Assembly (NCBI GenBank): GCA_951406725.2
Contig: OX597819.1
Location: forward strand, 77,128,001-77,192,000
DNA: 64,000 bases
Reading direction: 5' to 3'
From: Octopus vulgaris
Taxonomy: Eukaryota
Numbering within the stretch: the first letter of the stretch is position 1; every line of letters begins with the position of its first letter. This document shows positions 11,612-62,937 of the stretch, one piece after another. A program made the position numbers and the translations under genes. The notes below the pieces were generated by a model that was not told where the DNA came from, made no database searches, and saw nothing but the letters and a program-made list of their open reading frames with translations.

Positions 11612-11709
11612 AAAATTTCTTCGCGTACGGGTATTTGATGATGAAGAATATGAAAAGAATGAAACTTTTTTCATTTGGCTAGATGAACCTTTCCTTGTGA
11701 AGAAACCAG
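11612..11709 (+). CDS. NCX: Internal exon of a Na+/Ca2+ exchanger (SLC8/NCX), Calx-beta/CBD2 segment equivalent to vertebrate NCX1 exon A
   Basis: Pyrimidine tract and acceptor ttctatcttctttcttacag (AG 11610-11611); donor CAG|gttagt. 98 nt = 1 + 32 codons + 1 (phase 2 to 1). Translates KFLRVRVFDDEEYEKNETFFIWLDEPFLVKKP, matching the NCX CBD2 pattern K-x-I/L-x-V-x-V-x-DDEEYEKN-x-TFF-x-x-x-x-EP-x-LV. Confidence 0.95.
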
Positions 11710-11888
11710 GTTAGTAAAAAAATTTAACAAACTTTAAATGAATAATAATGAAGATGATAATCCTGGTAAATTTTCAAGTATTAGGTCAATATCTTCATTA
11801 TTATTCAACTTGAATTGTTTAATTCATTTTCAAAAGTATCAAGTATCATCATAGCTATCATTATATATCAACAATCTTTACTTGAATA

Positions 11889-11971
11889 TATACACTCACC
11901 CACCTTCACTTGAAACGTACAGGTTGCAGGTGAGGTTGTGTACGTTTCAAGTGAAGGTGGATGAGTGCATA
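11889..11971. repeat. Inverted repeat, 33-bp arms, 17-nt loop
   Basis: tatacactcacccaccttcacttgaaacgtaca pairs with tgtacgtttcaagtgaaggtggatgagtgcata, with two mismatches. Confidence 0.95.
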
Positions 11972-12350
11972 CTTTTAGGCGCATGTTGTGGGTATGCGGG
12001 CGCCCATGTGTAGGTATGAACATGCACACTTACGCGAATACTATGAACTTTTTTACCCCCCTTACTTTTACTCCCTCCCCTCACTTAGTGGTCATTCAAA
12101 TAGCTCTTTTGTCTTAATAATGGTCAATCACACAGTAATTTCCCTTTGTATAACGGTCGTTTTTCATGGCATTTTTTCCGATGGCCGGATAACTGAAGAC
12201 ATGGCAGCATGGATTTCCACCTCGGCATCCGAAACTCAGAGTTTAATCATGGCTACCGAATAATCGTCACATATTACATTTAGAGATAAATTCCTCTATT
12301 TACATAATATCGAGGTCTCTTTCATTCTTTTGTTGTCTTACCATTTTTAT

Positions 12351-12355
<5 letters not shown>
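11939..12355 (+). mobile_element. Probable Penelope-like element terminal-repeat fragment with a decayed hammerhead motif
   Basis: CpG-retaining segment ending at a (TA)n run; CTGAAGA at 12193-12199, GAAA at 12231-12234, then ctc-a-gag-tt. Confidence 0.45.
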
Positions 12356-12399
<44 letters not shown>

Positions 12400-12400
<1 letters not shown>

Positions 12401-13488
12401 CTACTACCTATGTGGAAAATCAATGTATGTTTGTTTGTGGTGTTGTTAGCTAACTCCTCCCACATCGTTTTATTGATTTTTAATGAAACTTGACATGTGA
12501 GTAGGACTCATATCTGGAAATCTCATGACATACTTAGATTGTTGAAAAAAAATCGATAATATGGCCCTGGAAGGGACTTTTATATCTACCTCATATAACT
12601 AATTTTTTTTAAATACCCAAGGGAAATAACCCATAGCACCTGCACAATATTTTTTTAAACACTCGGGAAATAACCCATTTCATTGTTTGTGTTCGATTAC
12701 TTTGAATATTGTTTTTTTGTGTGTTCAATTTCTAATTTTTGAAGACAATATCACTTTTTTACTTTATTTGACATGTGAGTAGAACTCATGTCTGGAAACC
12801 TCATGACATAGATTCTTGAAAAAAAATCAATTATAGGGCCTATCCAATGGATCCTCCTATCTACAACATATTACTAATATTTTATTTAAACAACCCAAGG
12901 GAAATAACCCATACTGCCAGCAGTTTTTAATGAAGTGATCAATATTTGATTCTCACAGTCAGCCAACCCAATTCTGCATTTCACTACTCAGTTTTGAACT
13001 GCTAATTATTAGTATTGCACTTCCTTAATTTGAATCTCTTCATTCATACATTTCTGTACATACTTGTTTGAATGCCTATCACTCCAATAATTCTGCATTT
13101 TTACAGTTACACTTTCTCCATGACAGTAGATAAATTTTTTTCCACCACATATTTGTAGTGGCTTCATGCAAGCAAAGCGTGGATTCAATCCTTGATTGCC
13201 AAATTTCACTTAACACTTCAATAGTGCTTTACTCATGGTAAAACAATAGTTTTTTCTGTGAACAACAACCTCTCTCACAAACCTCTGACAATCTTTTTCA
13301 CCAACCTCCGAAAACCTCTCTCACCAACCTCCAACAATCTCTCCTCCAGCTGACAGTTTTTGTACTTTTTCATGATGGAAAATACACCTTTTGTGGCAGT
13401 TATAACAAAATTGCATTTTTATATCAGAGTAATAAGTCATTTGAATGGAACATCTTTACCCCCAGAAATTACCAGGTACACCAGCTAG
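12400..13488 (+). mobile_element. Non-autonomous Helitron-like element with an internal duplication
   Basis: A|TC start, CTAG|T end preceded by a decayed GC hairpin. Internal direct repeat ~12490-12640 vs ~12768-12920. Shares ctaact-ctcccacat and gggaa-taac motifs with 27837-28196. Confidence 0.65.
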
Positions 13489-13716
13489 TATATATATATA
13501 TATATATTTATCTTCCTGCTGTTGAGTTGGTTCATCTGGGACACTTGACAGTAAGAGGTCGAGTTTCATTTTGAAGACACCTACATCCACCTCATGCAGA
13601 ATAAGTCCTGGGGTTGATTTGCTCAACTAAAGTCTGTGCTTCAGCATGGCCACAGTCAAATGACTGAAACAAATAAAAGAATAAAAAGAATACACACACA
13701 CACACATATATATATA

Positions 13717-14573
13717 CAAGTGAAAATCAAATCAAATCAAATCAAAATAGATGAACATCAATGGAATTTGTATCTTGTGGTACCAGTGCCGGTGGCACAC
13801 AAGAAAACCATCCGAACGTGGCCGTAGCCAGTACCGCATCGACTGGCCTCCGTACTGTGGGCACGCAACAAACACCATCCGATCGTGGCCGTTCGCCAGC
13901 CTCATCTGGCACCTGTGTCGGTGGCACATAAAAACTCCATCCGAAGACCCGGCAAGACTAGTCAGGCCATAACCCGTGGCCCCTACCTGGGACGTAGTCA
14001 GTCCACCTGTGCATACCTTCCTTCTTGTGACACTTGTGAAGACCTGTTGAGGCAAGTGAAAATCAAATCAAATCAAAACAAATCAAAATAGATGAACATC
14101 AATGGAATTTGTATCTTTGTGGACCAGTGCCGGTGGTACACAAGAAAATCATCCGAACGTGGCCGTAGCCAGTACCGCATAGACTGGCCTCCGTGCTTTG
14201 GGGACGTAACAAACACCATCCGATCGTGGCCGTCCGCCAGCCTCATCTGGCACCTGTGTCGGTGGCACATAAAAACACCATCCGAGCGTGGCCGTCTGCC
14301 AGCCTCGTCTGGCACCTGTGTCGGTGGCACATAAAAACACCATCCGAGCGTGGCCGTTCGCCAGCCTCGTCTGGCACCTGTGTCGGTGGCACATAAAATC
14401 ACCCACTACACTCTCGGAGTGGTTGGCGTTAGGAAGGGCATCCAGCTGTAGAAACACTGCCACATCTGACTGGCCTGGTGCAGCCTTCGGGCTCCCCAGA
14501 CCCCAGTTGAACCGTCCAACCCATGCTAGCATGGAAAACGGACGCTAAATGATGATGATGATGATGATGATGA
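13717..14573 (+). mobile_element. Young RTE-type 3' fragment with a duplicated segment and ~60-bp internal tandem units
   Basis: GC/CpG-rich. 13717-13943 is repeated from ~14054. Unit ccatccgagcgtggccgt-cgccagcctcgtctggcacctgtgtcggtggcacataaaa; (GAT)n tail. Confidence 0.8.
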
Positions 14574-14587
14574 TACACATTTATACT

Positions 14588-14740
14588 TTATTAAAAACCA
14601 TCAAAAATATCACAAAAGCTGTTACTCAGAGTTTCACTTTGCCATTTTCTTGGACAGTTTTGTTTAAAACTGTCCGACAATCAGGAACATGAAACTCTGA
14701 GTAACAGTTTTTATGATATTTTTGCTGCTTTTTGATGAAG
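14588..14740. repeat. Fold-back with ~75-bp arms, each containing a decayed minimal hammerhead ribozyme motif
   Basis: aaaaatatcacaaaagctgttactcagagtttca...ggacagtttt mirrors aaaactgtcc...tgaaactctgagtaacagtttttatgatattttt. Confidence 0.85.
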
Positions 14741-14864
14741 AATATTACTCTATCTCTGGTATTCAAGTACTATTTTTCCACCTTGTTTCACATTTATCTG
14801 CTTACTTTGGTATATACATTTATATGTATATAAATGTATATATATATATTTCACTTAGTTAAGA

Positions 14865-15065
14865 CAGTGAAATGGCAGAATCATTAGCACACCAGGCAAA
14901 ATGCCTAACAGCATCTTTACATTCTGTGTTCTAATTCTGCCAAGATTGACTTGCCTTTCATCTTTTCAGAGTCAATGAAATAAGTACCAGTTGAGCATTG
15001 GGGCTGATGTAATCTACTTAGCCCGTCCCCAGAAATTTCTGGCCTTGTACCAGCATTTTAAACCA
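14865..15065 (+). mobile_element. SINE family B
   Basis: tggcagaatcattagcac...gacttgcctttcatc...aaataagtaccagttgagc. Confidence 0.8.
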
Positions 15066-16969
15066 ATATTTCACTTAGGTATAGTGCTACCAGTTACCTG
15101 TTGTTAGAACTCAATACATGTATGCTTCAGGAGTAAAGCATTAGTTGAGAACAGAGCAAAATAAGAGTTTATGTAAATGATGAGTGAATAAGAAATTATG
15201 TAATGAATTTTAATAGCTTACATTTGTTTCTGTTAAAACTCTTCATTTTTGAAGCCCCAACAAAAGTATAAGGTGATATGCAAGCACTCATCTACGAGCA
15301 CATTGCGTCTTATAGTAGAAACAGATGTTGTCTAGCAATGTTCATTACCTAATTTCTTGTTCCCTTGTCCTTTATATCTCTCATATATATATATATATAT
15401 ATAGATATGGTTGTGTATGCTTGTGTGTTTGTTCTGTATGTATGTATGTGTGTGTGTCTGAGTGTATCAGTATATTTTAACTTAATATGATTCTCTTAAA
15501 TGACCTAAGTTTATAAATAGATTGAAAGCATCATTTAAAAAAAAATTTTAAAGAAATATTTGAGGCTTTCTTTCCTTTGTGTCTTATTTCCATCTCTTGA
15601 TCTTTTATTTCCTATATCTTCTTCATTCATCTCATTCTTTACTCCCTTTTCTTTTTAATCATATTTGAATTAATTAAAATATGAGAAAATAGTGTCTTCA
15701 TTTCTGCCTGTCCTCTTTCTTCTCTCTCTCCTTCTCTCTCCCTACCTCTACTTTCAACTTTGTTGAAATACCAGTTTCCTACATTATTTAATTCCCATTT
15801 TCATTATTGTTCCTCCTTTCTTCTACATCTTCTTTATGTTTCTTTCCTCTGTTTCCAAAATATTTGCCAAATATTTCTTCATAATATTTTTGTTTTTCCT
15901 CTTTGCAAACAATACTCTTCAAACTAACCAAATTAAGCTTTATCCCTTTACTAGTTTGTAAGAGTTAATAGTTTTTTAAAAATTCATTATTCAGTTAATG
16001 TTTTCTATGGAAAGGGGTTCCTTTATTAGCCTGAATAACTTATAAATTTGCAAATCTTTTATTTTTGTTTTAATTTTATTTTTTAATGGTACCTTAAAAA
16101 TAATATTTATCCTTGAGTGCGAATTCATTTTTATGATTCCTCTACCAAATCATTGTTTTATATATCTGTGTGTGTGTAACAAAATCTCCATAAATTTGGA
16201 ACCCTTAAACAAGCATTACACTTAAGAGAATTAGAATCTGTATGAAAGACTGAAGGACAATCATGCAATATCAGTGTATATTATAGTGTATACAGCAAAA
16301 TCACCATAAATAACCAAGAAAGCAATTACCCCTGTACAAGTTTAACACTATGAGGACTAAAATTTCAATGAAGAAGAACTTAAAACCTTGAGAACACAAG
16401 ACACAAAAGATAAGCTGTCAGCAAGCATATTAAATGTATATATCCATCATCAGCTGCCAAATGAATATCCTTATGATTTCAGCACCTGAGCAGTACTATT
16501 CAATCTGGTGATGCCAACAGTATTTAAAACATAGATGCTGCCAGTGAATTAATGAACATATTGCACTAACATTTTACTTCTACTTCTTTATTATGTCTAC
16601 ACCTACTTATTGTTTACAAACATCAAAGCTCAAACATAAATCATTTTTTGCAAAGAAATTAAGAAATTCTACATAGAAAGCAGAAACATCTTTAAAATGG
16701 ACTTTGCTACCCCAAGAATAATAGAACTTAAAATGCACCGGCAAACTAAATGTTTAGAACAAAAATCATTGAGCCTAGTTAAAAACACATTACCAATATT
16801 TCATTTATATAACTATAGTATTTTTCTAGCTTTTCTTGACTAAGAGATAAAAATTGTTGAATCTATACAGTTTATATTCATGTTTGAACTTGAAAATATG
16901 AGTGATTAGGGTTCAAATATATATGTAGGTGGAGTTTTTGAAGAAAGCATTTTGTGACAGAATGACTGG

Positions 16970-17215
16970 GCTGTGTGTTGTGTTCTTGGGCAAGACACTA
17001 TATAACATGTTGCTCCAGTTTACTCAGCTGTAGAAATGAACGTCACTATTGGCAAGCCTTTGCCTTTCCCAACATCAGTGGCATGGAAGAAGGAAGGCTA
17101 GTGTGCATGGGCAACTGCTAGTTTTCCATAAACAACTTTGCCCAGACTTGTGCCTTGGATGGGAACTTTCTAGGTGCAGTCCCGTGGTCGTTCATGATTG
17201 AAGGGGTTCATTACC
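16970..17215 (+). mobile_element. SINE family C, 5'-truncated
   Basis: gtgttgtgttcttgggcaagacact...ctttctaggtgca matches 39495-39745. Confidence 0.75.
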
Positions 17216-20200
17216 CTCTAAGTCTACTAAAATCTGGACACTAGTCATATCTTGTCTGCTGTAAGGATATAAATGGTCTTCTTGTTGATATAGTCTGGTT
17301 TACCGTTTGAAGTTTAGTATCTTCCACATTAGTCTGGCACTTGACATGCAGTTTTTTGGGGCTTTTAAAAAATTTTTTGGAAGTGAATAGTGAAATGAAC
17401 ACCATCATCATTATTGCATACATACACATACACACATGTTTCTATAAAAGAAATTTAAATTTAAAGCATTTTTACATTTGCTTACAGTTATCTTCTCACA
17501 TTGTTTAATATCTAAATTCCCCTACTTCACATCTTAGTTTTTAAACTGCCCCACCCCCAACACAATTATCCAATTTCTAAATTTACTTCATCAAAAACCC
17601 AATGAGAAAAATATTTACTTCTTGAGAAATACCAGAGAGAAATATCATCCTCTCAGCTGTAGCATTTAGAATTTCTATTTCAACACTAATAGGTTGTAAT
17701 CTTCATATCTATGTAATCACCTTTGAAACTTAAAACACTTCACTTTGAGATTTATAGAGAAGTCTGCTGTATCATATTGAGTAGTTTAGTTTTTTTAAAA
17801 AGTGGTGCCAAGAAAGTCTAAATAGGTTGTTTTCTGCTTTTTTCATAACATACCCCCTTTCTTGAATATGCAGAGACACTGAGCAGTACTACAGAATATA
17901 CAGTACACAGTTTAAACTTTGTTGTAAAAAAAAATCTTGGTTGCTCAGTAAAAAATGCACTCATATGATCTGTTTTCATAAAGATATTAAGTGGGTTGGC
18001 TTAACTTGGCTGGGGTCATTCCAAGTTAGTGGTCCCAGAAGCATCATCATACATAGAGCCAACCAGTGCTCTCCATCACTGGCATTCCCATGCCAGCCCC
18101 TCTGCATCTTCCAAGGTGATATCAAGACTTAGGGGATTATATTTATTTTCATTTAAAGTAACTATTGAAAAGACAAACCCCCCCCCAAAAAAATGCCTCT
18201 TAGTGGTAGATTTTAGAGAGATGAAATTGCATTCATTCATTATCTCAAACCTGCTATCTTATAGTATGAAAATGTGTAATCATATCAATTTAATTTCTGT
18301 TAATTTGCAAAGTGTATAATTAATTAGTAAAGAGAGACGCATAAGAAACTTAAATAGACAGTCGTTATTATATATATCATTTGAGTTACAGTTCCAGGTT
18401 CTACTATTTATCTTTGTATCTGTTACATAAGTATGATTACTCTTGCAATGTAGAGTGGGTTGTTCTGAAAGTAGAAATGTTCATAGAGAAGCTATTTCAG
18501 CTTAAGTACTAGTATGCCAACATTTCGAGAAATGTGGTGGTGAATCATTGCCAGCAGATCCTGTTACTATAATTGTTCCATTTTATATATTCCGATGTTC
18601 TCAGATATTTTTCACTTCTCATATATCATTGTAGTCAGTTAAGATCTGTTTTTGTGACATTGATGGTAACACTGGAAAAAAACTCAGAGTACTGGCGTTA
18701 TTTTGTAGTTTATTTAGCTTAATAAATTCCATTTTATGAGATGAGACTAAGTTGTGGATTGATTGAAGCTTTCAAGAAACAAGCCAAGTTGCTGCTAAAT
18801 AGCGTGTGTTTATAGTTTGAAATTTCACATGACTCTGATATAGATACAGGTGTGGCTGCATGGTTTCAGAAGTTTACTTCCCGACTATGTGGTCTTGGTT
18901 TCAGTTCCACTACATGGCACCTTGGACAAGTTTTCTACTCTTCTGTATAGCTATAGGGAAATATTACTACATTGCTTGGAAACAAGTGAGGATCTGATTG
19001 TAGAAAATTTACCTTAATAACTTCCATCTGACCCATGCAAGCACGCAAAAAGGGATGTTAAAACGATGATGATATACTCTTTTATTGGTTGGCTTCAGGA
19101 CCCTATCTACTAGGAATTTTAGTACATTATATCCACCTGAGTATTTAGTGTAGTATTTATTTTATCAATCTCTATCAAATGGATAAATTCACTTTGTTAT
19201 AAAGGGACATAACTCAAACAAGTTAAATACCACATTTTTGTTTGATGCACTAATCTATTAGCAGTCACTCATTGATATGCATACTCATATATCTATCTAT
19301 CTTTCTTTCTTTCCATCTGTGTGTGTGTATATAAATGATGGGTCACGGGTGTAGCTTCCATCTATCAAATTTCTTTCACAAAGCTCTGGTGAACCTAAAG
19401 CTGTGAATGAAGACACTTATCCCAGACCATGTGACTGCAAGGAGGAATTTTTAACTATACTCTTATGGCTGTACCTATTTATACATATTAATATATGTGT
19501 GTGCATGTGCAATGAGAATTTGGTTATCTAGGTGATCAATAACTGAACAACCAAACCATTTATAAGATGCCCTGTTCAGTCACTGGGACTGGAATTGTGT
19601 CAGTGACTAAAAAATAATTTCAGTACACTAGATCACTTTACCCAAAATAGATATTTTGGTGTGTTATAATGAATTCGAAGTTATAAGCAGTAACAGCAGT
19701 ATGAAATTGATGTGTGTTTGTTAGTTTGCAGTACTGAATTTGATTCTTTTTTTTATCAATAATAGAAAAAAAAAATGTGCCTTTCTTTTAAAAAAAACAT
19801 GTTGAGCATAGAAACAATAGCTTAGCACAATAAGGAAAGGATAGATTTTATGTGTAACAAAGATTTTGGAAGAGAGAAAAATATATAACTTTTGGGCAAC
19901 TATTTCTCTGTTGTGTGAAGAAACCAGTCTCAGTTAGTCTGCACATGGCACAGCTCTCTACATTCAACCTAGAGGTAATAAATAATAAAATAATTAAAAA
20001 AAAATACAATAAAACTTTTTGATGGAAACTTATTCCGAAATTTGCACTGAAGTTTGATGTCCTAAAATACCGCATTTGTAAATCAGATATAACCATATTT
20101 CCAATAGGCTTAATTAACACTATTTTATAGAGTAATGTGTATTCATGTTTTTGGTACAGCAGCAGACGTTTATGATTAGGTTAACTGTGACTTGTAAAGA

Positions 20201-22347
20201 ACAGGGTTGGTTGAAAACTTCATTGGTTTCCACAAACTCAGTGAACCAGGTTGATTAGCTTTTGTTTAATTATCTTTGTGTACTTGTACTGTTGTTGTTT
20301 AGCCCCAGGTTATCCTTGACCAAACAGACTTATGATCAAAGCATTCTAACTATGGTCATTCTATCTTGTTTGCAATTGTGATATATCTAAAAGTACAATG
20401 CCCCTAGAGACACTGCAGCCCTCCTAATATGTACATTCTCTACTTTTATCTCTTTTTATCAAGAGAGTATGTTTTGAAAGAAATTTGGCTGATTTTTTTT
20501 TCTCTCTGAATGGCTGCATCAAATTCTTTAGTTGGCCTTTAGTAATGAAGTGTTGATATAGTTCAACATATGTTATCTAAGGTAATTTGGTGAATGTAAG
20601 ATTATATATTTCAGTACTATTTCTTATTGAAATACTTGAAGCCTTGTTTATCACCATTCCATTCCATCCATCATTGATCTGGGATGACATGGTAGGCTCA
20701 GTTGTGAACCATGTTATACTTATTACAAATTGATCTGTGATAACACAGGTCAGTGATTTATCGAAGATTCTGCTTGAACTGCAGAAACACACCCAAGTGG
20801 CCACCCACAATGTTCAACTACCCAGAATGCATTTATTGTCGCTTGTTTTCATGACCATGCTAGGAGGTTGTGTAGTTTTTTTATACAAATTTATGTATGC
20901 ATACCATCAGTGTAGGACCAGTGAACAGAAAAAAATTACAAAAACATCTAATTCTAACAAGTGATGCAAACAAAATATATGCTCTGCAGGAAAAGGTAGA
21001 GATGATCGACAAAAAACATGACAGTAGAAGCTTCTCTGATGTGGCTTCCATGAGCTTTGTGTCAATGAATCTAGCATTTATTCTATTTACTAGGTGTATG
21101 AAGAGGATTTATTTAGCACCAAGTTTTTTTTTTGTTTTTTTTTTTCGAAACCACACTCCTGTGATAAGCTAGGATGATGTATTCCCTTTTCTTTCAGTCA
21201 TATGTAGTTGCATTGTTGTTTAATGCCTGGACAGATTGATCACACTGAATTATGATCAAAAATATTCCAGCTGTAATCATCCCAGTTTTGTTATTTAATC
21301 TGTCCTAACTTTTTAAATGACAGGGTGGGTTTTGCTAGATATTTGACTGCTATTTCTAGAAGTTTGGAAGGCTAAGCAAAGGTCCCCCCATTAGCTTGGT
21401 TTGTTTCTTTTCATTGCAGTTTTGTTCAATACCACTTTGAAATAGAAACATTGTTATAGTATTTTTATGTTTAAAATATCAAAATTCTATAAGTTTTTGC
21501 TTTTATGATTGGGGAACATTTGATTAATTGAATGGAATGGCTTGAATGATAATTGACACTTTGAGGTATATTCTAGATATTCTAGAAACCTTAGCCATAT
21601 TCTTTTATATTTTTAGCCATTTGAGTCTCAGTTGAGTGAAAAGTAGTAAAGATTTCTAAAATACCATTTAAGGGTGGCAAACACATTTATGCAGCGTAAA
21701 TTTAAAGTAAAAAAATTTTATGAAAATATCTAAAACCAGGGATTAATGCCAAAGAAATAGATTTATTGTGAAATGCTTTTAAGAGTGTTTCTGAATGAGA
21801 ATTATATTAATAAGCATTATGCTGCCTTGCACACGAAGCATTACAGCAGAGAAGGCTAGAGGCTAAATGAATTTTAAATAAAGTAGTTTATTTTGGAAAC
21901 TACTCATGAAAAATCTTTAAGAAATGTGCCTGATTTTGACATGAAGATTTATTCGCTTTTTATTATTTTCATGTAACTTGAAATTCTTGTGATGTTCGTG
22001 TATAAATATGTCTGTGAGAAATCATGTACTTTTGGACACAATTGTTTGATGTTAATATCTGTTTTTTCTATTTATTTATTTGTATACAAAGTTTCTCTCA
22101 TTTCTTCTTTCTCTTGATCACTTTGTATGTTGCTTACACCTGTTGTTTCTGCTCATTTTGTCCTTTGCCTTCTCCCTCTATTTTATTCATTCTCATTTTG
22201 TTCATTTCTTTCTTTTCTGTTTTTTTTTTTTTGTTGTTGTTGCCGTTACTAAACAAGTTCTAGTTTTGATAATAGCTTTACTACACCTCACTACAGTTGC
22301 ATGCACTGTAATGAAAAAAACGAAAAGAACAACCCTAAACAAGATGC

Positions 22348-22735
22348 AGGCATAGCTGCGTGGTAAGAAATTTGCTTCCCAGCAACTTGGTTCCAGGTTC
22401 AGTCCCACTGCATGGCAAAATTGGGCAAGTGTCTTCTACTATAGTCTCAGGCTGACCAAAGCCTTGCAAGTGGATTTGGTAGACGGAAACTGAAAGAAGC
22501 CCATCTTATGTGTTTGTGTGCATTGTTTTTCCCCCATCACTGCTTGATAACTGCTGTTGATGTGTTTACATCCCTATAACTTAGCAGTTTCACAAAAGTG
22601 TCCCATAGAAAAAGTGCCAGATTTAGAAGGAATAAGTATTGAGGTTGATTCATTCAACTAAAAATTCCTGAAGACAGTGCCTCCAGCATGGCCACAGTCT
22701 AATGACTGAAATAAGTAAAAGATAAAAGATAAAAA
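22348..22735 (+). mobile_element. tRNA-derived SINE family A, full length
   Basis: tagctgcgtggtaagaa...ggttcagtcccactg...ggatttggtagacggaaactgaaagaagcc...atgactgaaataag and a (TAAAAGA)n tail. Confidence 0.85.
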
Positions 22736-22902
22736 TGAAGATTTGATGGCTAAGATGTTGGCATTCCACCCAACAAAGAGATTATATTGGATTTAAACAG
22801 CGTTGAAGAGTATTAGATAATTTGGTGACCTCTTGATGTTTAATATAGACCAACTCATAGAAAGAGAGAACCTATTCTATGTTGTCTAGAACATATTGTT
22901 TG

Positions 22903-23297
22903 TCTTTTATCTTTTACTTGTTTCAGTCATTTGACTGTGGCCATGTTTGGGCATTGCCTTCAAGAGTTTTAGTCGGTCAAATCAAAAACAGGACTTTTTT
23001 AAAAAAAAAAACCTTGTACTTATTCTATCAGTCTCTTTTGCTGAACTGCTAAATTGCAGGGGATGTAAACATACCAACACCAGTTGTCAAGTGGTGGTGG
23101 AACACTCATATATATATATATAATACACACACACACATGATAGGCTTCTTTCAATTTCCGTCTACGAAATCCACTCACAGGCTTTAGTTAGCCTGTGGCT
23201 ATAGTAAAAAATAATTGTCCAAAGTGCCACACAGTGGGACAGAACCCAGAACCATGTGTTGTGAAGAAAGCTTTATTACCTCACAACCATGCCTGCA
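22903..23297 (-). mobile_element. SINE family A, full length, inverted relative to 22348-22735
   Basis: Starts tcttttatcttttacttgtttcagtcatt and runs through to the reverse complement of the tRNA-like head. Confidence 0.85.
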
Positions 23298-50921: not shown

Positions 50922-50972
<51 letters not shown>

Positions 50973-51044: not shown

Positions 51045-51529
51045 GAATGGTAAAAACAGATACTTTGGTTTGTTTGTTTTTATCTGATTACGGTTAGTTA
51101 AATTTAATACATCCTCTTTGCTTTAATAGACATCTGATTCAAAATATTTTATGCATATTGTTTTGTTGGGATTTTCTACATTTTAAAAGGCTCTAAGCTA
51201 TAGGTCTATTTACAAACAAACATAGCTGAAGTCAAGGTTTTACGATATCTGAATCCTTAAAATAATGCATCCTACTTTTAAAATTCTATCATTAGTATTG
51301 CAAATCTACTTGTTCTTGTAACAGACAGTATTTTGATTTCCTCAGTTGTAAATTCAATGGTCACCTCAAAAAACTTAGTTTCCTGCATTAAAGCATATTC
51401 CTCTCTTAAATGGCACATCTGCCTTGCATATATTTTCCCCTCAGCAGTTGTTCCTCAAAAGTTCAAACCAGACATTACTTCAGTTCCTGACTCACTTTTG
51501 GCATCTGAGTGGTCATGGAGAACAACTTC

Positions 51530-51921
51530 ACCTTTCATCTTTTCAGTGGGGAAGCGGGTGTCAATAAAATAAATACCAGTTGAGCATTGGGGTTCAATGT
51601 AATCAACTAGCCCCTCCCCCAAAATTGCTGGCCTTGTGCCAATAGTAGTAAGGATTATTGTTATCATTATTATTATTATTATTATTTAAGGTGGTGAGCT
51701 GGCAGAATCATTAGCACGCCAGGCAAAAATGCTTAGCAGTATTTCATCTGCCGCTATGTTCTGTGTTCAAATTCTGCCACGGTCAACTTTGCCTTTCATC
51801 CTTTCGGGGTCGATAAATTAAGTACCAGTGAAACACTGGGGTCGATGTAATTGACTCATCCCCTCCTCCAAAATGGACACCCTTGTAGCAAAATTTGAAA
51901 CCATTATTATTTTTATTATTA

Positions 51922-51973
<52 letters not shown>

Positions 51974-52210
51974 CATTATTATTATCATCAAGGCAGTAAG
52001 CTAGCAGAATCATTAGCATGCTAAGCAAAAATACTTAGCTGCATTTCTCCATCTTTACATTCTGAGTTCAGATTCTGGCAAGGTTGACTTTGCCTTTCAT
52101 TCTTTCAGGGTTGATAAAATAAGTGCCAGTTGAGCAGTAGGGTCAATGCAATTGACTTGCCCCCTCCACCGAAATTGCTGGCCGTGAACCAAAATTTGGA
52201 ATTATTATTA

Positions 52211-52257
<47 letters not shown>

Positions 52258-52460
52258 GGGAGGGGGTAGTAGTAGTAGTAGTAATTTCACAGTCATTAGA
52301 ACTTCAAACAAAATACGTTGCAGTATTTGTTCTGGCTCTTTATTTTCTGAGTTCAATCCCAGCCAAAGTCACATTTATAAAGTATTAGTTAAGTGCGTTT
52401 GGCAATTTAATTTACTAACCCTCTCCTCCCCAATTTCTGGCCTTGTGTTCCATATCAGAA
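51530..52460 (+). mobile_element. Four tandem SINE family B copies separated by (ATT)n
   Basis: Copies at ~51530-51655, 51690-51903, 51990-52200 and 52290-52460. Confidence 0.8.
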
Positions 52461-52842
52461 ACTACTATCACTAAAAGTCAGTGAAGAGAGAAGAGAAATT
52501 GTACTAAGTAACCTTTGCAATCTCTCACATGATGTTGTCAAAACCCAGTCTAAAACCTGGTGTTTTGAAACTTGTTACTGTCATTGTTGTGTCTATTGCT
52601 AAGCTATTTAATGTTTGCTCAGTCCACTTAGCTGTAAATAGGCACAATGCGGAAGAAACAACTCACTACTCTCAGTTGCCACAGCCCTGTGTAATCAACA
52701 AGTATTTTGTAAACTTGTAGTGTTGAGTTCAGCTCTTTGTGTGATTATTACTTTGTGTTTTATGGACTCTACATTGCTGTCTACCCTTGTTTCTCAGATA
52801 ATCTACAAGGTGTAATGGGCAAAACCTTCATCTGTTTTCCAA

Positions 52843-53895
52843 GGGAAATGATGCTAGTATGTTCCACTGGATGTGCAATATCAATGTACAAGGAGGTGCT
52901 GAAAAGTTCCTGGCTGTGGGTAAAAGAAAATACAGGAGGATCAGTTAATCATGATTTTATTCAACATATTTTGTTTTTATTTAAAAAAAAAACATTTGAG
53001 CAAGGTTGTTGCCAGTGCCGCTGGACTGGCTCCTGTGCAGGTGGCACATTAAAAACACCATTTGAGCATGGCCGTTGCCAATACCATCTCACTGGCCCTC
53101 GTGCCAGTGGAACGTAAAAGCACCCACTACACACTTGGAGTGGTTGGCGTTAGGAAGGGCATCCAGCTGTAGAAACTCTGCCAAATCAAGATTGGAGCCC
53201 GGTGCAGCCATCTGGTTCGCCAGTCCTCAGTCAAATTGTCCAACCCATACTAGCATGGAAAGCGGACATTAAACAATGAACAATGATGATTCTCTTTTCA
53301 GATTCAAACATTTATTGCAGTGGTCCTTTAGTTTTTCTAAACCCTGTAAAAGAACTCTGAAGGTTGGGCCTCCAACTAGGCATTTTAAGATACCCTTAAA
53401 GCCAGGAACTTTTCATCATACCCTTGTACATGTGCACCAGAGTGCTGGTGTTTTGAGGGAAAAGTTGAGCATAAGAGGAATTAGATACAGTGTACAAGAG
53501 AGAAAACTGGGCTGGTTTAGTTAAGTGATGTGTATGGATGTAGATAGTTGCATACAGACGTGCCAATCATTTGAGGTGGATGGAACTTGTGGAAGAGGGA
53601 GACCACAAATTATTGAAGGCCAATCCCAAGACACTGAGCCTTATGAAGGGGATGACTAAGGACCAAAATATCTGGTACATTGCTGTGTTCAAGAAGGCCA
53701 ATCTGCCACAGCAGAATTAATAGTAGTTCACTCTGTGGAGCGGTTGGTATTAGGAAGGGCATCCAGCTGTAGAAACCATGTGAAAACAGACAATGGAACC
53801 TGGTGCAGCTCCTGGCTTTTACAAGCTCCAACCAAACTGTCCAACCCATGCCAGCACAGAAAATTAACGTTAAATGATGATGATGATGATGATGA
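52843..53895 (+). mobile_element. RTE LINE 3' remnant interrupted by a mariner MITE
   Basis: GNDASMFHWMCNINV | HVHQSAGVLREKLSIRGIRYSVQERKLGWFS*VMCMDVDSCIQTCQSFEVDGTCGRGRPQ, then the 3'UTR motif and (GAT)n tail. Confidence 0.85.
52889..53426 (-). mobile_element. mariner-derived MITE with TA target duplication, itself interrupted by an RTE-tail insertion (~52971-53290)
   Basis: 27-bp TIRs caaggaggtgctgaaaagttcctggct / agccaggaacttttcatcatacccttg (23/27 match); TA at 52887-52888 and 53427-53428. Minus strand reads LQGLEKLKDHCNKCLNLKRE|YVE-stop, a mariner transposase-like C-terminus. Confidence 0.85.
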
Positions 53896-54300
53896 AGACT
53901 AAAGTTCCCTCTATAATCTAATCAGTTCTGAGACTCATTACTAGTAACAGTAGAAAATATAATGTTATAGTTCACAACCCATGTCTTTCTGTACCATCAA
54001 AAAAATACTTTGATTGCCTATGTAAATTTAAAAGAGGATATTACAAAGTGTCTTCTTTATTGTCTACTGCCCCAAACAAGATTTGCTTTCAGAAATGTAA
54101 TTTAATGAAATTCGGATCAATTGTATTAAATTCAGTCTATGTACAGCAAACTATAGTTGCCAATACAGCTACTAGAAGATTTCCTGTTAAGTGAGTTTAC
54201 TAAGAATTTTGTTGCATTGTTAAGAAGCAATGTATCGATCTGTTGGCTCATAGCTTAGCACTTAGTCAAATTGCTCTGCTGCAACTCTTTTCTTGTCAAG

Positions 54301-54330
54301 TGATCATGATTTAGTCTTGTTATTTCATTG
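54301..54330 (+). CDS. Candidate 30-nt microexon, open only in phase 2 (DHDLVLLFH)
   Basis: Three TGC motifs at 54272-54282, acceptor ctcttttcttgtcaag, consensus donor TTG|gtaagt. Phase 0 and phase 1 readings contain stops. Confidence 0.33.
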
Positions 54331-54825
54331 GTAAGTGACTGACTGACAGTGTAGTTGGTTATTCAGAGGAGAAATAGATGGTAGTAGTTTCATATTGCTT
54401 TCTCAAGACCCATAGGTTGAGAGGAACTCTATACTGCAAGTTAATGAGACTTCCATCAGTTTTTACCATGCTGTTACATATAACACCTTTAACTCTTTTG
54501 TTACCTTATTTCTGTCACAATACACTATTTTCTTTCAATTCATTTAAAAAAATAAGGAAGAGTATAGTAAACTATGGAGATGTACTTGTATAGTAAGTGT
54601 TTTAATCTGACAATACGTGTTGAAACTAAAGTGATTACAGTATGGACAGTACAAAATTAGACATTAAGAAATATTTATTTGTGTCTTACTGAATGGCTAA
54701 CTTGTGTCTTCTTTGCTATGGTTACATGAGAGTTTAATTGAAAGTTTTTAACTTAGATCACTTTAAAATAGAAAGTGTTTGTGCCATAGAATCAGAAGGG
54801 CTAAATCTAAATGTGTCTGATTGTT

Positions 54826-55052
54826 TTAACCCTTTTGTTATTATATTTATTTTGAGATGCTCTGTTTCTAGCAATTACTTTAAATATAACAAAGAATTTA
54901 GTAAAATAACTTAGTTATCATTCAGCTAGTGTTAGGAACATAAATTGTGACTAAGGTTTGGTGGAAGATTCTAATTCAAAACTTATGAAAACAAAATATT
55001 TGTACTAAAGAGCCAGGGCCAGTTTCAGCTGGGCTGGTAATGAAAGGGTTAA
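54826..55052. mobile_element. piggyBac-like MITE
   Basis: TTAA-ccctttt...gaaaggg-TTAA. Confidence 0.8.
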
Positions 55053-55286
55053 AGTGGACTGTCTTGTTAAAGAAATGGTACAGTAGATATGACAAGATTT
55101 CAACTGCCAACCTCCCTGCTGTTAGCTAGTCTGATACACTCTATTTCTATTCTGTTTTCATGTAACATTGTTGAGGTACCTGAATTTCAGTTTAAAAATT
55201 CTTTTTTGTTTTTATCCACCTTTTTTACACCATTCAGTTCTGAGCTTTTTCTTATGCATTTAACCATCCTGGTATAGATTTAAATA

Positions 55287-55500
55287 TTGGTTTCAAATTT
55301 TGGCATGAGGCCAACAATTTCAGGAGATGGAGTAAGTCATTTACATCGACCCCAGTTCTCATCTGATACCTATTTTATCAACTCCAAAAGGTTGAAAGAC
55401 AGTCAACTTCAGTGGGATTTGAACTCAGAACGTAAAGACAAACAAAATGCTGCTAAGTATTTTACCCAGCATGCTAACGATTCTGCCAGCTTGCCTCCTT
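55287..55500 (-). mobile_element. SINE family B
   Basis: Ends gctaacgattctgccagcttgcctcc, the reverse complement of the family head. Confidence 0.8.
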
Positions 55501-55557
55501 GGCATAGAATTAAATGTTGGTGTAACTTTCCATTCAGATCTTGCTTTGGGTTTTGTA

Positions 55558-55908
55558 GAGTGGTTCTCAACTGGGGTCCATATGGCCCCTGAAGGTCTAT
55601 ATAAGATTTTTGAGGTTCTTACAGCAAAATAGTAAATTGGGGATCCATGATGATATTTTAAGGGCCCCTGAAAAAATTTTGCTTTAGATGTATCTATAGG
55701 TATGTATTGCAAGAAACAGCTAAGTTTCTTTCTCCAACATTTTACATAGTTTAGCTTACACAAATGAATGAGTGAAAAACAAAATAGGAATTTTGAAAGA
55801 ATTGTTTCTATAAAACTAGTTTTTAAACACTGAATGGCTACGGGAGACCCACCAAAATAAACTAGCGATCAAAAGGGACCATAGATGAAAAATGGTTGAG
55901 AGCTCCCG
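55558..55908. mobile_element. hAT-like MITE related to 8351-8661
   Basis: gagtggttctcaactggggtccatat ... aaaaatggttgagagctcccg. Confidence 0.7.
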
Positions 55909-56117
55909 TCCTAGTAGCACCCATCTCCTCTCTAGAATAAGGACGTTGTTGGTTCTCAGAATATTCATTTTCTTTCCACAGGTTTTGTTTCATAACCCTT
56001 TTGAGTGTCTATCCTTGTTCCTCACTGGGCAAGTTCAATAGGGGGCTGGTTTAGTCTCTGACCACTGCACCACAAAAAACCAATAGTATGGCAGTACATG
56101 ATTGCGTATGGCTTGTG

Positions 56118-56432
56118 AAGGCACATGGTTTAGTTGTTAGGGTATTCAGCACATGATTGTAGGGTCACGAGTTCAATTTCCGGTGGCGCATTGCGTCCTT
56201 GAGCAAGACACTTTATTTCATAGTGCTCCAGTCCACTCAGTTGGCAAAAAATGAGTAATACCTGTATTTCAAGGGGCCAGCCTTGTCACACACTGTGTCA
56301 TGCTGAATCTCCCTGAGAAGTATGTGAGTGTCTGTGGCATGCTCAGCCACTTGCACATTAATCTCACAAGCAAACTCTTCCATTGGTCAGATCAAATGGA
56401 GCCCTCGATGTCATAAATGACATAGTGCCAGT
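56118..56432 (+). mobile_element. SINE with a family C head and a different 3' half
   Basis: catggtttagttgttagg...gagttcaatttcc...gtccttgagcaagacactttatttca; the tail matches the fragment at 25703-25800. Confidence 0.7.
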
Positions 56433-56644
56433 TACATGGTTGCCAGTAGCAGGTTTCTATCAGCCTGTGGTTAAATTACTCTTGACCTGACATGGATGCA
56501 CACTGGGTGTTATTTCTTTTTTGATCAGTTTCTGTTATTTCCTGTCAAATATCAGTGGTCAGCTGTAACTGACAGTTGATATAACTGGAGCTTTTAGGTG
56601 CTGATTAAACACTTCATGGTGGCAAAATTGACCTTAGATATAGT

Positions 56645-57043
56645 TTATTCTTTTATTCTTTTACTTGTTTCAATCATTTGACTGCAGCCATGCTGGAGCA
56701 CCGCATTGAAGTGTTTTAGTCAAACAAATTGACCCAGGACTTTATTTTTTAAATTCTAGTATTTATTTTATCAGTCACTTTTGCTGAACCTTTAAAGGGA
56801 TGTAAACACACCAACAACGGTTGTCACACAGTGATAGCGGTACAAAACAGACACAAAGGCACACTCACATAGGCATATACAATGGGCTTCTTTCAGTGTC
56901 TGTCTACCAAATCCACTCACAATGCTTTGGTTAGCCCAAGGTTATAGTAGAAGTCACTTGCCCAAGATGTCATATGGTGGGACTGAACCCACAACCATGT
57001 GGTTGGGAAGCAAGCTTCTTACCACACAGTCACTCCTGTGCCT
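56645..57043 (-). mobile_element. SINE family A, full length
   Basis: Runs from tail ttcttttattcttttacttgtttc to head cttaccacacagtcactcctg. Confidence 0.85.
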
Positions 57044-58635
57044 ATCTTAGCACATCTGTACTTTTGTTATCACTTGTTCCTGTCTAAAACTGTCTCTTAT
57101 TCTATGAACTCTTCAGGAATGTGACTTTGGTAAGACTTGAATTCATAGCTACAAAATGATCAGTTGCTTGCCACTTATAACTTTTAATCCAGCATGATTA
57201 CAATACAATTACAGTAGTAGACTGGCAAAATCTGTTGAGCAGCAGAAGAGCTAAGTTCAAAAATATAGCTCCTTAAATTCAAGGTTCAAATGTTGTCAAG
57301 GTTGACTTTAACCGCTCATATATGAACAGGAAGTACTAGATTAGTATCTTGATGGATAGGAGTATAAATTTAGCTGTCAAAAATTCAAATTCCTCTTGTA
57401 ATGTCTACACTAAACACATTGGTAACACATGCCAACATTACTTCATCCTGAAGGGGAGACCAAGAGGGAATTAGAAATGTTGATAATGGATTTTGGAACT
57501 TCACCATTCGAAATATACTGGATGGAACTTGTACAATAATATGGAAAAAGAAATAAAATAAAACTTCTGAAAAACAGTAACACTTGAAAACAGCCATTGT
57601 TTACACACACACACACAAACGAGATAGAGAGAAATGAGTTTATTTAGACTCATATTTTTGTGAGAACAGGAACTTTTTATTGCTTCATTGTAGTTATAAT
57701 TGTAAGACATAATAAAGCTTCAGTGTTTATGAGTGTTAATCATAGAAATCTATTTACTCCTCTTGTTTATGGTGTATATATTTGCTCAATTCAGGTTTGT
57801 TCACTAAAAATTCTGATGTATTTAATGTATTAACCTCTTTATTAACCAGCTTAAACAAATATTAATATGAGACTAGTCATTTTATTACAATTGTTCATAG
57901 CATTATATTAATAATTCATAATACAGTTTTAATCATTTATAATATTAGTGCAATCATAATATAGTAATTGTATGGATGTATTCATATCTATATTATCTAA
58001 GGATATATTATTAAAGGTAAGGTTTGCTCTCGGCAAACTAAGTCCATTATAGAATTTCTCTTCCCCGCTTTAATAATTTCATTCTGTATATGTTTATTCA
58101 TGCCCTTAGGAAAAAGCATAATATCACATCTTTCTCTTTATAAATTTCTAATATTTTTCCTAATGATTGTCTGTTGATCAAAGGAAGTTGGTTCTGCAAT
58201 TTCTTGCCAAACGACCACACTCACAGATACACATAGGCTCACTCCCTGCATGTCAGATGTTGAAGAATACAGTGCACCACCCAGTCTGTCTGGGAATCAA
58301 ACTCATGGTCCCATGATTGTGAGTGCAACACCCTATCCACTATTTCATGCTCATATTTCTCCTACATATGTAATGAAGCACGAAGAAGTGTCTTTACTAG
58401 CTTTTAAGGTCTTATGATATTTAATTCATCAAGCTTCAAAAAATGTGTAAAGTTACATCACTGTATGAAGTAGATACCGATATACACTTCTACATTTTAT
58501 TATAAAGTAAGTACCGCTCAAGTTTTGGGTTCAATATTGCCAATCATACTTCTCTTCCCACAAAGTTATGGTCTTGTGCCTATGTTACCATTCTTATTTT
58601 CCCTCCATATTTCAGCTGTTGCATGCTATTTTTAG

Positions 58636-58806
58636 GTTCTATATCACACTATTTTGAAGAATGTGATGCCAGCTGTTTTCTGGATGAGACAAATGTCTCG
58701 GTACATTCTGGGACACCCTACTCAAATATGATTCCTCTTATCGAAAGACAGAATTTTGGCAGTTCTACATCTGCAAGCAATGAACCCATACGACACCGTA
58801 TGTCAG
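58636..58806 (+). CDS. NCX: Candidate 171-nt NCX cassette exon, phase 1 to 1 (alternative acceptor gives 58616-58806, phase 2 to 1)
   Basis: Acceptor tatttttag at 58634-58635, donor CAG|gtcagt. Open frame GSISHYFEECDASCFLDETNVSVHSGTPYSNMIPLIERQNFGSSTSASNEPIRHRMS. Non-repetitive, GC-richer than its flanks, and in the phase required after the 11612-11709 exon. Confidence 0.55.
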
Positions 58807-60096
58807 GTCAGTCATAACTGTCACAAAAGCAGTCACCAGTATTGTAGATTTTTAGGAATGAAACCTCCACCATTTTCGTGTGTTCCAAGCGTCTTGCACT
58901 ATTGAGAAGTAATGCGTTAGCCCAACAGGTTGAAAAAAAAAATATATATATAGCTTTTATAATAAAATGAATGAACAAATTATGTAGAACTTTATTGCTC
59001 CTTACTTAATTTGAAATGACTCGGCCTTATCTGTGTGTTTTGCTTAAGTGGGCCCCACATAGAAGTCAATTTTTCAGCACCTAGCAATATATGTGTGTTT
59101 CTATAATGTAAATGGTATGCATTTGAGAGCTCTTTATGCCCTCACCATCACCTGGCTTTTTAAATTTTTTTTGCTAGACTTGCGAGTGCCCTTCTAATTT
59201 ATACTACTAATACCCCCTCCAGTTCTGTTATTTAATACCGACCCTTTCAGCAAGATACTCCTATAGCATATGAGTGTCTAAATCTATAATCTTAGTAATA
59301 GTAAAGCTTTCAAGTAACCACTCCTTGCCTACTCTGCTGTGTACATAGTATAGTCAGTATGCAAATCAATTATATTCTGTTTCATGTAATATTTTATATA
59401 CTTGTATTTATATTTTAATTGATTACTCACCCCTTTTATAATTCTAGCTATCTTCTTCACTTAACCTAACTATCGTTCCCATATAAAAGCAAAGCTATCT
59501 CCTCTCATTAACGATGTTGATATCTGAAACTGCATCGTTTTTTTTTTTTGTTTTTTTTTTATGTCTAGCAAGTATTTTATTAACTTGGTTTATCAGTTTA
59601 TTTTACTGTGTTAGAAATAATTGTTTTACTTTGATATCCAGGTGTTGATACACTCTCACACACACACAAATTTAGGTTTAACTTAATGAAATATGATTAA
59701 ATAGTTTCTTTTATCTAAAAGGTTTATGAATATTTTTTTTAACTTAATGTAACTTAATATTTTATGTTTGTTACATACACACCATGACTCATGTCAGTCC
59801 TTCAAAATGCGTTTATACTGTTACACTCACTGTTCTTCTATTTTGTGATAGTACCAGGTTGTTCATGTATAATTGCTTTTAATCATCGTCATAGTCATCA
59901 TCATTATGAACATTGTCATCATCATTGACATCATCGTTGTCAGTCACTGGACATTAGTGATTCAGTCCTAGGACTCATAGAAACCTGCTATTTGGTTTCC
60001 ACTACATATAAGTGAGCTCAATCACAGTATTCACCTTGAATGGGATTCCAGTGTTTCACAGGGTTACTCATTAAGAGCAGAGTGGATTGCAGCACC

Positions 60097-60358
60097 ATCA
60101 TCATCATCATCATTGTTTAACGTCTGCTTTCCATGCTAGCATGGGTTGGACAATTTGACTGAGGTCTGGCTGCACCAGATTCCAATCTAATCTGGCAGAG
60201 TTTTTACAGCTGGATGCCCTTCCTAACGCCAACCACTCCGAGAGTGTAGTGGGTGCTTTCACGTGCCACCAGCACAAGGGCCAGTCAGGCGGTACTGGCA
60301 ACAGCCATGCTCAAATGGTGCTTTTTATGTGCCACCTGCACAGGAGCCAGTCCAGCGC
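60097..60358 (-). mobile_element. RTE-type 3'UTR fragment nested in a minus-strand SINE
   Basis: (CAT)n followed by gtttaacgtctgctttccatgctagc; host sequence resembling 34885-35110 lies on both sides. Confidence 0.75.
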
Positions 60359-61739
60359 ACCATGAAATGAAATGTTTTTTCTCCAAAACAAAATACACCA
60401 CCCTGTCTGGTAATTGAAACCACAACCTTGCTATTTTGAATGCAATACCCTAACCACTAGGTCATACACTTTCACTTATTCAGATAAACAAACTACAAAA
60501 TGGTTATCAGTTTATAAGGAACCATGAATACATAGTTTCTTTTAAATTGCATCTTTCTTGAAACATTTGATTTTTGAAATGGTGTAAGTTCCATGTAGAT
60601 AATACTGAAACTGCAGTCTTAGAAGACAGCATCGTTGAAAACTGCACTTTTTGTCATCTGCTTGATGTCTCATCTACCTTGGAAGCTCTTACCTATTATT
60701 TTTATCAACTATGTTGTGGAAGAACCACTTAATAACACAAAGCTATTAAATTTGCTTTAAATTTATCCCATGAGATATCAAACTTTTCATCACTTAATTG
60801 CTATGTCATCACTAACACAGTTCCTCTATCAATGTTGGAACTTTACCAGTGACCAGGTTGCAGTCGTGCAAGGAAAATAATTGAATAGATAAATTTGAAG
60901 TGAATTCAACAGCCTTATGTGTTAGTAAATGGCATCATTATTTCTTGGTTTGACACCTGGTTTCAGATCAAGTAACTTGTAAGACAAGCACAACTCTGAA
61001 ATTATTTTTATGTTTATGTCACGAAATGAAAGCGCTACTAAATCACTGAGAATTGTTCATGATAATCTATTGGTCCATTTTTATTTGAGTTATTCTTTCT
61101 GTTGAAAATGTATTGAAAGAATACCATATATAAGAAATGCTTTAACTCCTTAGCTTTCAGATTATTCTGTGCAGAGTAATACTTATTTATTCACATTGTT
61201 ATGAATTAATCATGCATTATATCTTAGTTTTAAGATTTCGATGAGGTAACTGTTAATTTTTAGAATAATATTATAGGGTTGGTGTTAGAAACCAGATCTG
61301 GCCTGTTTGAACATAAGCTAGGTAGAATATTTTGGCCAGATAAGGCAGGTTTAAATGCTAAAGAATTAGACAATGTAAGCAGGCACAGTATTCTCTTTGT
61401 AACATTATACGTTAATATTTTTAATCATTAGCAGGATAAAATATTTTCCTGAGATACCAGCATAAATAGAAAAAAAGTTATCAACTGGCACCCATGCCAG
61501 TGACACGTAAGAAGCACTCATTACACTCTTGGAGTGATTAGTGTTAGGAAGGGCATCCAGCCATAGAAACCATGCCAAATCAGACTGGAGTCCAGTACAA
61601 CTCCTCAGTCCTGGTCAAACCATCCAACCCATACCACTATGGACAACTGCCTTTAAATGATGATGATGATGGTGGTGATGATGAATGTTATTCTGCTTCA
61701 GTAGAACTATGATGATAACACTAAACAATTCCAAGCTAT

Positions 61740-62260
61740 CCATCTATTAGTTTTCTCTACCCACCATTCCTGGGAGAGTCATGAGAGTAGAATTCTCAGC
61801 GCTTCTTCCATTGGTCCTATCAGAATCAGCTGGATTCCCAAGTTTAACCAACAGAGACTATGAATATTATCCAACCATGTTATTTGTGGTCTACCCTAAG
61901 TCTCTTGTTAGTTGACTTGTCTTGAAGAATTCTTCTTGTGATTCTTTCTTGCAACATTCTGGTCACATGTCGTAATACTGGAGCTGTGACCTCTCAATGC
62001 ATAGAAGTAGTGGCTTAACCCAGAGAAACTCTCTGAGCTTTTCACTCCAAGAGAATCTCATGACTATACTTACTTAATCAATCCCCAATATTCATGAGGA
62101 TAAACATGAAACTGCTTTCCTTACCAACCTCTCTCTCTCTCTCCTCTTCTAAGAATTGGATGTTGAAGTTGGCACAGTACTGTGTCAGCACAATTGAGCT
62201 TCCTGCCACACATCACTTATGAATATGGCCCCAAGATATTTAAACTTCTCCGTGTGCCGC
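61740..62260 (-). mobile_element. Decayed RTE LINE ORF2 fragments (second family)
   Basis: Minus strand gives EKFKYLG, PLLLCIERSQLQY and GRPQITWLDNIHSL with frameshifts. Confidence 0.65.
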
Positions 62261-62937
62261 AAACAAGATGGGCAATGATTTAGATCTTAGTATTCTCATT
62301 TGAAATTGTATCATATTATGTTTAATTTTTAATATCTGAAATCTGATGGTGATTTTGCTGATATTTATTTCATGTCCAATATCTTAGGTACCACCCGTTT
62401 TGTAGCTGGTTTACATCTGTTAGCATATCAAGCAGCCAAATTAACTGCATAACACCTGAAATAACACGCGCTCTTGCATGACTGTAATCATACAGTTTAA
62501 ACTAATTGAAAATGCTAAAAGAATTAAGATAATGCAATGTAATTAAAATAAATGTTTTAACACCTTGAGTGAAGGATAACATGCTTCATTTGAATCTTAA
62601 CTTGGTTTATATATCAAACTGAGGTGGAAAATCACGATGACAACTATTACTATTGGAAAAGAAAACAACATCAAAAATTATATAAATAAAACTTATTCGT
62701 GAGTCAGATAAATCATTATCAAATGATACATGTCGTTGTACTGTATTTTTGTTAGATATCTCAGAGCTTCATTGCCAAAAGCATCTAGATCATGTGCATA
62801 GTTGTGCAATCAAACTTTGTCTTTTCTTTTTAATATTGAACAAAAGGTAAATCATTAGTATTGTGGGAAAAATGCTTAGCAGCATTTTGTCCATCTTTAC
62901 ATTTTGAGTTCAATGCACACACACACTCACACACTGC

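Follow-up and report, generated by a model that had tools for sequence, protein, structure and literature searches.

What lies within an intron of more than 70 kb that splits the CBD2-coding part of an octopus sodium–calcium exchanger gene? The question is raised by a 64,000-nt stretch of Octopus vulgaris DNA (GenBank assembly GCA_951406725.2, contig OX597819.1, positions 77,128,001 to 77,192,000; hereafter, the window), for which the initial annotation had proposed eight candidate cassette exons downstream of an exon of the NCX (SLC8) gene. Our analysis indicates that this intron probably holds an optional 21-nt cassette exon and three duplicated exons of 171–192 nt that are likely to be rarely used; their inclusion would lengthen the FG loop of CBD2 and likely retune the regulation of the exchanger by Ca2+.

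The exchanger gene and its 7-residue cassette

On the basis of protein comparisons, the gene containing the exon at 11612..11709 (plus strand; hereafter, the anchor exon) is the octopus NCX gene. A Pfam search of the genome found Na_Ca_ex matches ∼ 200 kb before the window and 50 kb beyond it, on the same strand, and the 585-codon frame upstream is 100% identical to annotated NCX proteins of O. vulgaris and O. sinensis. In a Pfam scan, both isoforms contained two Na_Ca_ex membrane halves with two Calx-beta domains between them, the domain layout of NCX/SLC8A, and the octopus protein could be aligned with human NCX1 over its full length. The anchor exon itself (98 nt) is a constant CBD2 exon equivalent to exon A/B of NCX1, with a good acceptor and the donor CAG|GTTAGT, and ends in phase 1, as had been predicted. 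Its peptide agrees at 100% identity with the octopus NCX proteins in the annotation, and the exon is present in a single copy in the genome, with a single match in the 124-kb region as well. Contigs from all four sequencing runs inspected for it (presumed to be RNA or unlabelled) span the exon and end at 11709, and three long contigs carry the exon without its flanks.

The intron that begins after the anchor exon fills the remainder of the window (11710..64000, plus strand) and runs past its end, to a total length of 71,099 nt, which bears out the earlier estimate of more than 50 kb. The next constant exon lies outside the window at C6:77210809-77210930 (plus strand), or 82809-82930 in extended coordinates, in which the window numbering is continued into the adjacent downstream DNA. 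According to the annotated proteins, the ∼ 214 kb between the first large coding exon and the anchor exon are also intron, and the NCX coding region as a whole spans ∼ 318 kb.

Comparison of cephalopod proteins and gene models identifies the 21-nt segment at 41446..41466 (plus strand), which encodes the peptide DTDSAHS, as a genuine cassette exon, optional in cephalopods. The cassette is present in 11 and skipped in 12 of the 23 cephalopod NCX proteins with the anchor motif, a set that includes isoforms and near duplicates and whose members are not independent. Models that include it come from O. vulgaris, O. sinensis and O. bimaculoides, and the latter two species have models of both kinds. 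Decapod-type forms of the peptide are DTDSTHS and DSESTHS. Decapod-type Logan proteins that cluster with cuttlefish also come in both forms, with the cassette (41 contigs) and without it (42 contigs), and these must represent spliced products because they are uninterrupted frames on contigs of 3–4 kb. In limpet and Aplysia models, the anchor exon is followed by peptides starting with DTDS- or DSDS- and then by a stop, whereas a Logan protein contains, internally, an insert that starts with DTDSANS. Judging from such peptides, the 7-residue cassette may predate the cephalopods.

The acceptor at 41446 is preceded by a 71-nt AG-free zone and has one TGC upstream. A long AG exclusion zone and a UGC near the acceptor are among the properties listed for eMIC-dependent exons in the accessible part of PMC8797185. 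The octopus exon thus resembles the neural microexons controlled by eMIC/SRRM4 in its length (21 nt, within the 3–27 nt class), its AG-free zone and its UGC near the acceptor, but differs from them in having no CUAAY within 60 nt upstream, the span searched.

By default, the anchor exon would be joined to the next constant exon, producing a short loop as in squid NCX-SQ1, and we infer that this short loop is the common form. Inclusion of cassettes would produce a longer FG loop in CBD2, and since all cassettes are of phase 1-1, any combination of them would stay in frame. By analogy with NCX1, the 7-residue exon likely tunes activation by Ca2+; the more specific proposal, that it acts like NCX1 exons C–F on Ca2+ binding by CBD1, has in our view a somewhat better than even chance of being correct.

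Three homologous large exons

Further into the same intron lie three large exons that are homologous to one another. The first, L1 (58636..58806, plus strand), is a cassette exon of 171 nt, or 57 codons; L2, which like L3 lies past the end of the window (C6:77197201-77197392, extended 69201-69392, plus strand), has 192 nt and encodes 64 residues with an RKIS motif; and L3 (C6:77202207-77202389, extended 74207-74389, plus strand) has 183 nt and encodes 61 residues, also with an RKIS motif. Together they would place 182 residues into the FG loop of CBD2, including 38 Ser, 14 Thr and the two RKIS motifs. Aligned pairwise and end to end, the three exons share 106 of 167, 109 of 164 and 121 of 173 aligned bases (63–70% identity), scores that were reached by none of 500 intron pieces, whereas their 400-nt flanks gave only low local scores (18–22, with no null computed for them). 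All three have open frames, lengths divisible by three, AG/GT ends and a nearly identical donor, TCAG|GTCAG. Homology of the exons combined with weak similarity of their flanks points to long selection after duplication, and we infer from these alignments that L1–L3 arose by an old tandem duplication.

Carriers of the large exons account for three of the 23 cephalopod proteins, all of them Octopus models and each with all three exons: O. sinensis X1 and X2, which are full length (1092 and 1091 residues), and O. bimaculoides X1. The insert encoded in the present genome is identical to those of the carrier models at 181 of 182 and 170 of 182 residues. In an AlphaFold model, the insert falls between a CBD2 strand (residues 597–603) and a helix/strand segment (816–837), and in the alignment it coincides with the cassette site of NCX1. 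Its predicted local distance difference test score (pLDDT) is near 22 in a model that is weak overall (mean 49.9), and disorder of the insert is likely.

Several observations weigh against a substantial use of these exons, or of cassettes in general. None of the nine reverse transcription-PCR clones sequenced from the optic lobe and the stellate ganglion of the squid was a variant, according to the available portion of He et al. (1998; PMC2217150), which speaks against high neural inclusion. No Logan protein with L1–L3 was found, and these exons are known from automatic gene models and sequence features. Four additional runs (X2, X8, X14 and X19) yielded no contigs in the region 58590-58850 (0 of 4), which does not prove that the exons are absent, since contigs are prone to drop rare variants. 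In total, eight of the 24 runs found were examined, none of them recorded as RNA, all without a tissue record and as contigs only. The insert is also less conserved between Octopus species than the N-terminal part of the protein (93% vs 97%). As for the structure, the low pLDDT of the insert is no proof of disorder because the model is poor and the insert is present in only three of the 41 rows of the alignment.

Searches for relatives of the insert had little yield. Among proteins of 600–1911 residues, they were confined to the O. bimaculoides cluster, and the four matches among shorter proteins all fell in the constant flanks. A search among 1.84 billion representatives returned two matches, the second of which, a Ser/Thr-rich repeat protein, was discarded as compositional. 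A search of Atlas gave no usable match, and with L2 as the query, a genome search recovered L2 and a single chance match interrupted by stops. Scanning metagenomes for relatives' exon-A DNA gave one weak match of 45%. In the protein searches done, the insert thus had no relative outside Octopus and none among vertebrates.

The absence of an insert-carrying Logan protein, the 93% conservation and the failure to find a relative beyond Octopus would all be expected if only the 21-nt cassette works and L1–L3 are decaying or barely used, having been modelled from rare reads. We nevertheless consider this improbable, given that exons with 63–70% identity have all stayed open and in multiples of three, with a similar donor, while their flanks score low, and that L1–L3 have been modelled in two species. 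Another proposal is that L1–L3 serve mainly to make a truncated product, with L3 as the last exon of an exchanger that lacks the C-terminal membrane half. O. bimaculoides X1 (808 residues) continues past the L3 donor until it meets a stop, which is a further point against productive use of the block, read-through past L3 in the present genome would meet a stop within ∼ 10 codons, and the limpet and Aplysia models likewise end after the cassette site. Some truncating use of L3 is therefore possible. The truncation of every one of the three spliced O. bimaculoides models, however, suggests a break in the assembly or annotation. As the main role of the block, truncation appears very improbable: in O. 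sinensis X1 and X2, L3 is joined to the constant exon in a full-length protein, and the score of the L3 donor equals those of the constant-exon donors.

Our preferred view is that L1–L3 are probably cassette exons, and likely rarely used ones. Their inclusion would add a flexible, phosphorylatable arm to the loop. The 182-residue block could be a flexible Ser-rich insert with two possible basophilic kinase sites, the RKIS motifs, which fit a basophilic kinase consensus; we give this a chance well below even. In most of the other molluscan proteins examined, the region of the anchor-exon end contains RRGS, RKGS or KKGS. Octopus has no Ser there, and one could speculate that the RKIS repeats take the place of that site. 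It is rather doubtful that a triplicated modular insert of at most ∼ 190 residues with repeated RKIS kinase-type sites gives one cell type an exchanger directly controlled by phosphorylation, in which five in-frame exons, the 3-nt exon discussed below included, would allow at most 32 versions of the loop.

Other candidate exons in the intron and elsewhere in the gene

The eight islands named in the initial annotation (32289, 40816, 41446, 46661, 47791, 54301, 58636 and 62388) were said to be unique and to fit the reading frame. For seven of them, some GT does allow an in-frame cut; the exception is 54301, which was rejected as its frame stops after 11 nt (stop at 54312). No candidate lies inside a repeat according to a local self-comparison, and 32289 was single-copy in a genome search as well. 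The accompanying caution that chance AG..GT pairs are common was fully warranted, as the intron contains 3741 in-frame islands in the sense direction and 3587 in the antisense direction. To rank them, we used a rough splice-site score based on generic frequencies, untrained here and suitable as a ranking aid only. Among the 3741 sense islands, 41446 came first, 32289 second and 58636 fourth (tied), followed by 47791 (149th), 46661 (204th), 62388 (302nd) and 40816 (514th); the four annotated cassettes (41446 and L1–L3) hold ranks 1, 3, 4 and 4. The weak sites at 40816, 46661, 47791 and 62388, for which 416, 134, 92 and 199 antisense islands, respectively, are as good or better, score as chance and were rejected.

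When the islands were compared with the cephalopod NCX variants, the 58636 peptide was found in three of the 23 proteins, in addition to that of 41446, and the peptides of the other six in none. The suggestion that octopus has its own set of cassettes at the site of vertebrate exons C–F therefore holds for the set as such, with support for two of the eight named islands (41446 and 58636). That the other six are cassettes still awaiting annotation is highly improbable. The best case could be made for 32289-32435, which is second of 3741, has a 107-nt AG-free zone and is single-copy, and 54301, with its strong donor, could be an exon that carries a stop. However, besides the lack of their peptides among the 23 proteins, two antisense islands equal 32289 in score, 92–416 antisense islands equal the four weak ones, and 32289 would give a loop in the cytosol a long stretch of hydrophobic residues. 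With its good score and no protein support, 32289-32435 is unproven.

An additional codon can appear at the same junction. In a contig of run X10, 11709 is joined to CAG and then to the constant exon, with all larger cassettes skipped (at least one run, among the contigs listed), and the O. sinensis models include forms with and without an extra Ala. We lean modestly towards the view that this codon is a 3-nt microexon adding one Ala, with 37258..37260 (plus strand) as the candidate and 31715-31717 as a rival site. The intron has five AG-CAG-GT and two AG-CAG-GC sites, two of which (both GT) precede 41446, and 37258-37260 is the best of the 84 possible 3-nt islands before 41446, with ∼ 0.01 expected by chance under a rough, post hoc null. 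Two further sources of the codon were rejected: neither downstream acceptor has the second AG that a NAGNAG acceptor would need, and recursive splicing at 37260/37261 is unconvincing (rank 4 of 197 AG|GT sites).

A serious competitor, to which we give slightly less than an even chance, is that in other animals the anchor exon includes the extra codon and that CAG was deleted by slippage in the lineage of this genome, perhaps as a polymorphism. A residue is present at this position in 20 of the 23 cephalopod proteins and nearly always in other molluscs, and vertebrate A/B exons have 34–35 codons compared with 32 in octopus. Moreover, the X10 contig reads EICF upstream, like O. bimaculoides, where the present genome has EVCF, so that the donor DNA may differ. 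Slippage is, however, at odds with the presence of both Ala forms in O. sinensis models from contigs of a single length, with the top-scoring 3-nt island before 41446 being exactly CAG, and with the occurrence in the same gene of a clear 3-nt exon elsewhere, which has near-perfect signals.

That exon, AAG at C6:77220496-77220498, has a near-perfect acceptor and donor and lies just before the C-terminal membrane half. It accounts for the Glu of ITVNA(E)GDD, an optional residue: the sequence occurs in forms with and without it among both the octopus models and the decapod-type Logan proteins; other molluscs have inserts of ∼ 3–11 residues at this site. Another exon, starting at C6:77230175 (a 66-nt stretch), is the last exon in O. 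bimaculoides X2 and X3, which are truncated (716 and 709 residues), and a cuttlefish model has a similar peptide at an internal position. This exon is possibly a further cassette or a truncating exon.

The rest of the window offered little else. A dispersed repeat at 11400-11545, just upstream of the anchor exon, was matched by many contigs from all four runs with a high summed depth. Degenerate AT/ATGT simple repeats at 48108-51044 (2.9 kb) and 42681-43338 (0.66 kb) contain open frames of up to 1075 codons that are not genes. Tandem units include a GC-rich 62-nt unit (3.1 copies at 14211-14403) and a 301-nt unit (two copies at 51654-52257). Inspected by eye, the open reading frames of at least 130 residues in the window looked like simple or dispersed repeats or chance frames, and an Rfam search of the window had zero matches. 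Elsewhere in the genome, a 753-codon open frame at C4:171166266-171167414 (minus strand) carries two Na_Ca_ex matches, unlike most other family matches, and is possibly an intron-poor or retroposed exchanger gene.

Comparison with known splicing systems

In the passages of PMC6987452 and of bioRxiv 10.64898/2026.09.05.749416 that were available, there was no mention of NCX splicing, section 9 of On et al. (2008; PMC2408596) covers only vertebrates in the part available, and no paper on octopus NCX isoforms appeared in the search listings, where subscription journals are scarcely covered. The supplements of the bioRxiv preprint, which deals with O. bimaculoides tissue data, may already contain these exons. 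The presence of the isoforms in automatic annotation also makes them less of a surprise.

The closest counterpart is the A–F region of vertebrate NCX1 (SLC8A1), which belongs to the same gene family and, like the octopus gene, has symmetric cassettes right after the DDEEYEK exon in the FG loop of CBD2; exon C is even of the same size as the 7-residue cassette. According to the available text of PMC9820601, NCX1 exons C–F and the splice difference of Drosophila CALX both fall in the FG loop, with C–F near the high-affinity sites of CBD1, and added NCX1 cassettes raise the Ca2+ affinity of CBD1. By analogy with this, octopus cassettes would also affect regulation by Ca2+. The differences are no less clear. 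The octopus genome search revealed no mutually exclusive pair corresponding to A/B, although a very diverged copy could escape it, and the octopus cassettes have no likeness, by eye, to the C–F peptides in Table 2 of PMC2408596, in agreement with the initial annotation. NCX1 exons C–F add up to 41 residues in the same table, compared with 182 for L1–L3 alone, and it is the large octopus exons that are homologous to one another, likely by tandem duplication. Thus, the octopus system works like NCX1 C–F but is no member of it by homology.

CALX1.1 and CALX1.2 of Drosophila also differ by splicing in the FG loop, but by five residues only, with no large block reported in the accessible text (PMC9820601). 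L1–L3 share with tandem clusters of mutually exclusive exons the arrangement of homologous exons in the same phases, but differ from them in that all three carrier models, which are models rather than reads, hold all copies. Squid NCX-SQ1, the product of an orthologue, has the layout of the octopus short loop form; this exchanger, a classic model of NCX regulation, has been reported without splice variants, as in the nine neural clones (PMC2217150, in part), but the 7-residue cassette does occur in Logan proteins of the decapod type.

Cassettes at this site are not particular to cephalopods: models from abalone, mussel, oyster, clam and nemertean (Haliotis, Mytilus, Magallana, Ostrea, Saccostrea, Dreissena, Mercenaria and Lineus) have optional, mostly acidic inserts of ∼ 6–25 residues of their own at the same junction. 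With cassettes there in eight other lophotrochozoan genera, this junction appears, on the evidence of these models, to be a recurrent hot spot. Cassettes of this kind are accordingly already known from other molluscs and vertebrates, and it is the triplicated block that is unusual. In the 117 proteins with both anchors, the span between these has a median of 90 residues; the octopus long form reaches 273, and the next longest 130. As these exons show, the loop that varies in vertebrates and flies also varies in cephalopods, through exons of their own. No other protein examined has an insert here that comes close in length to L1–L3, which provide a natural test of the capacity of the FG loop and of its possible control by kinases.

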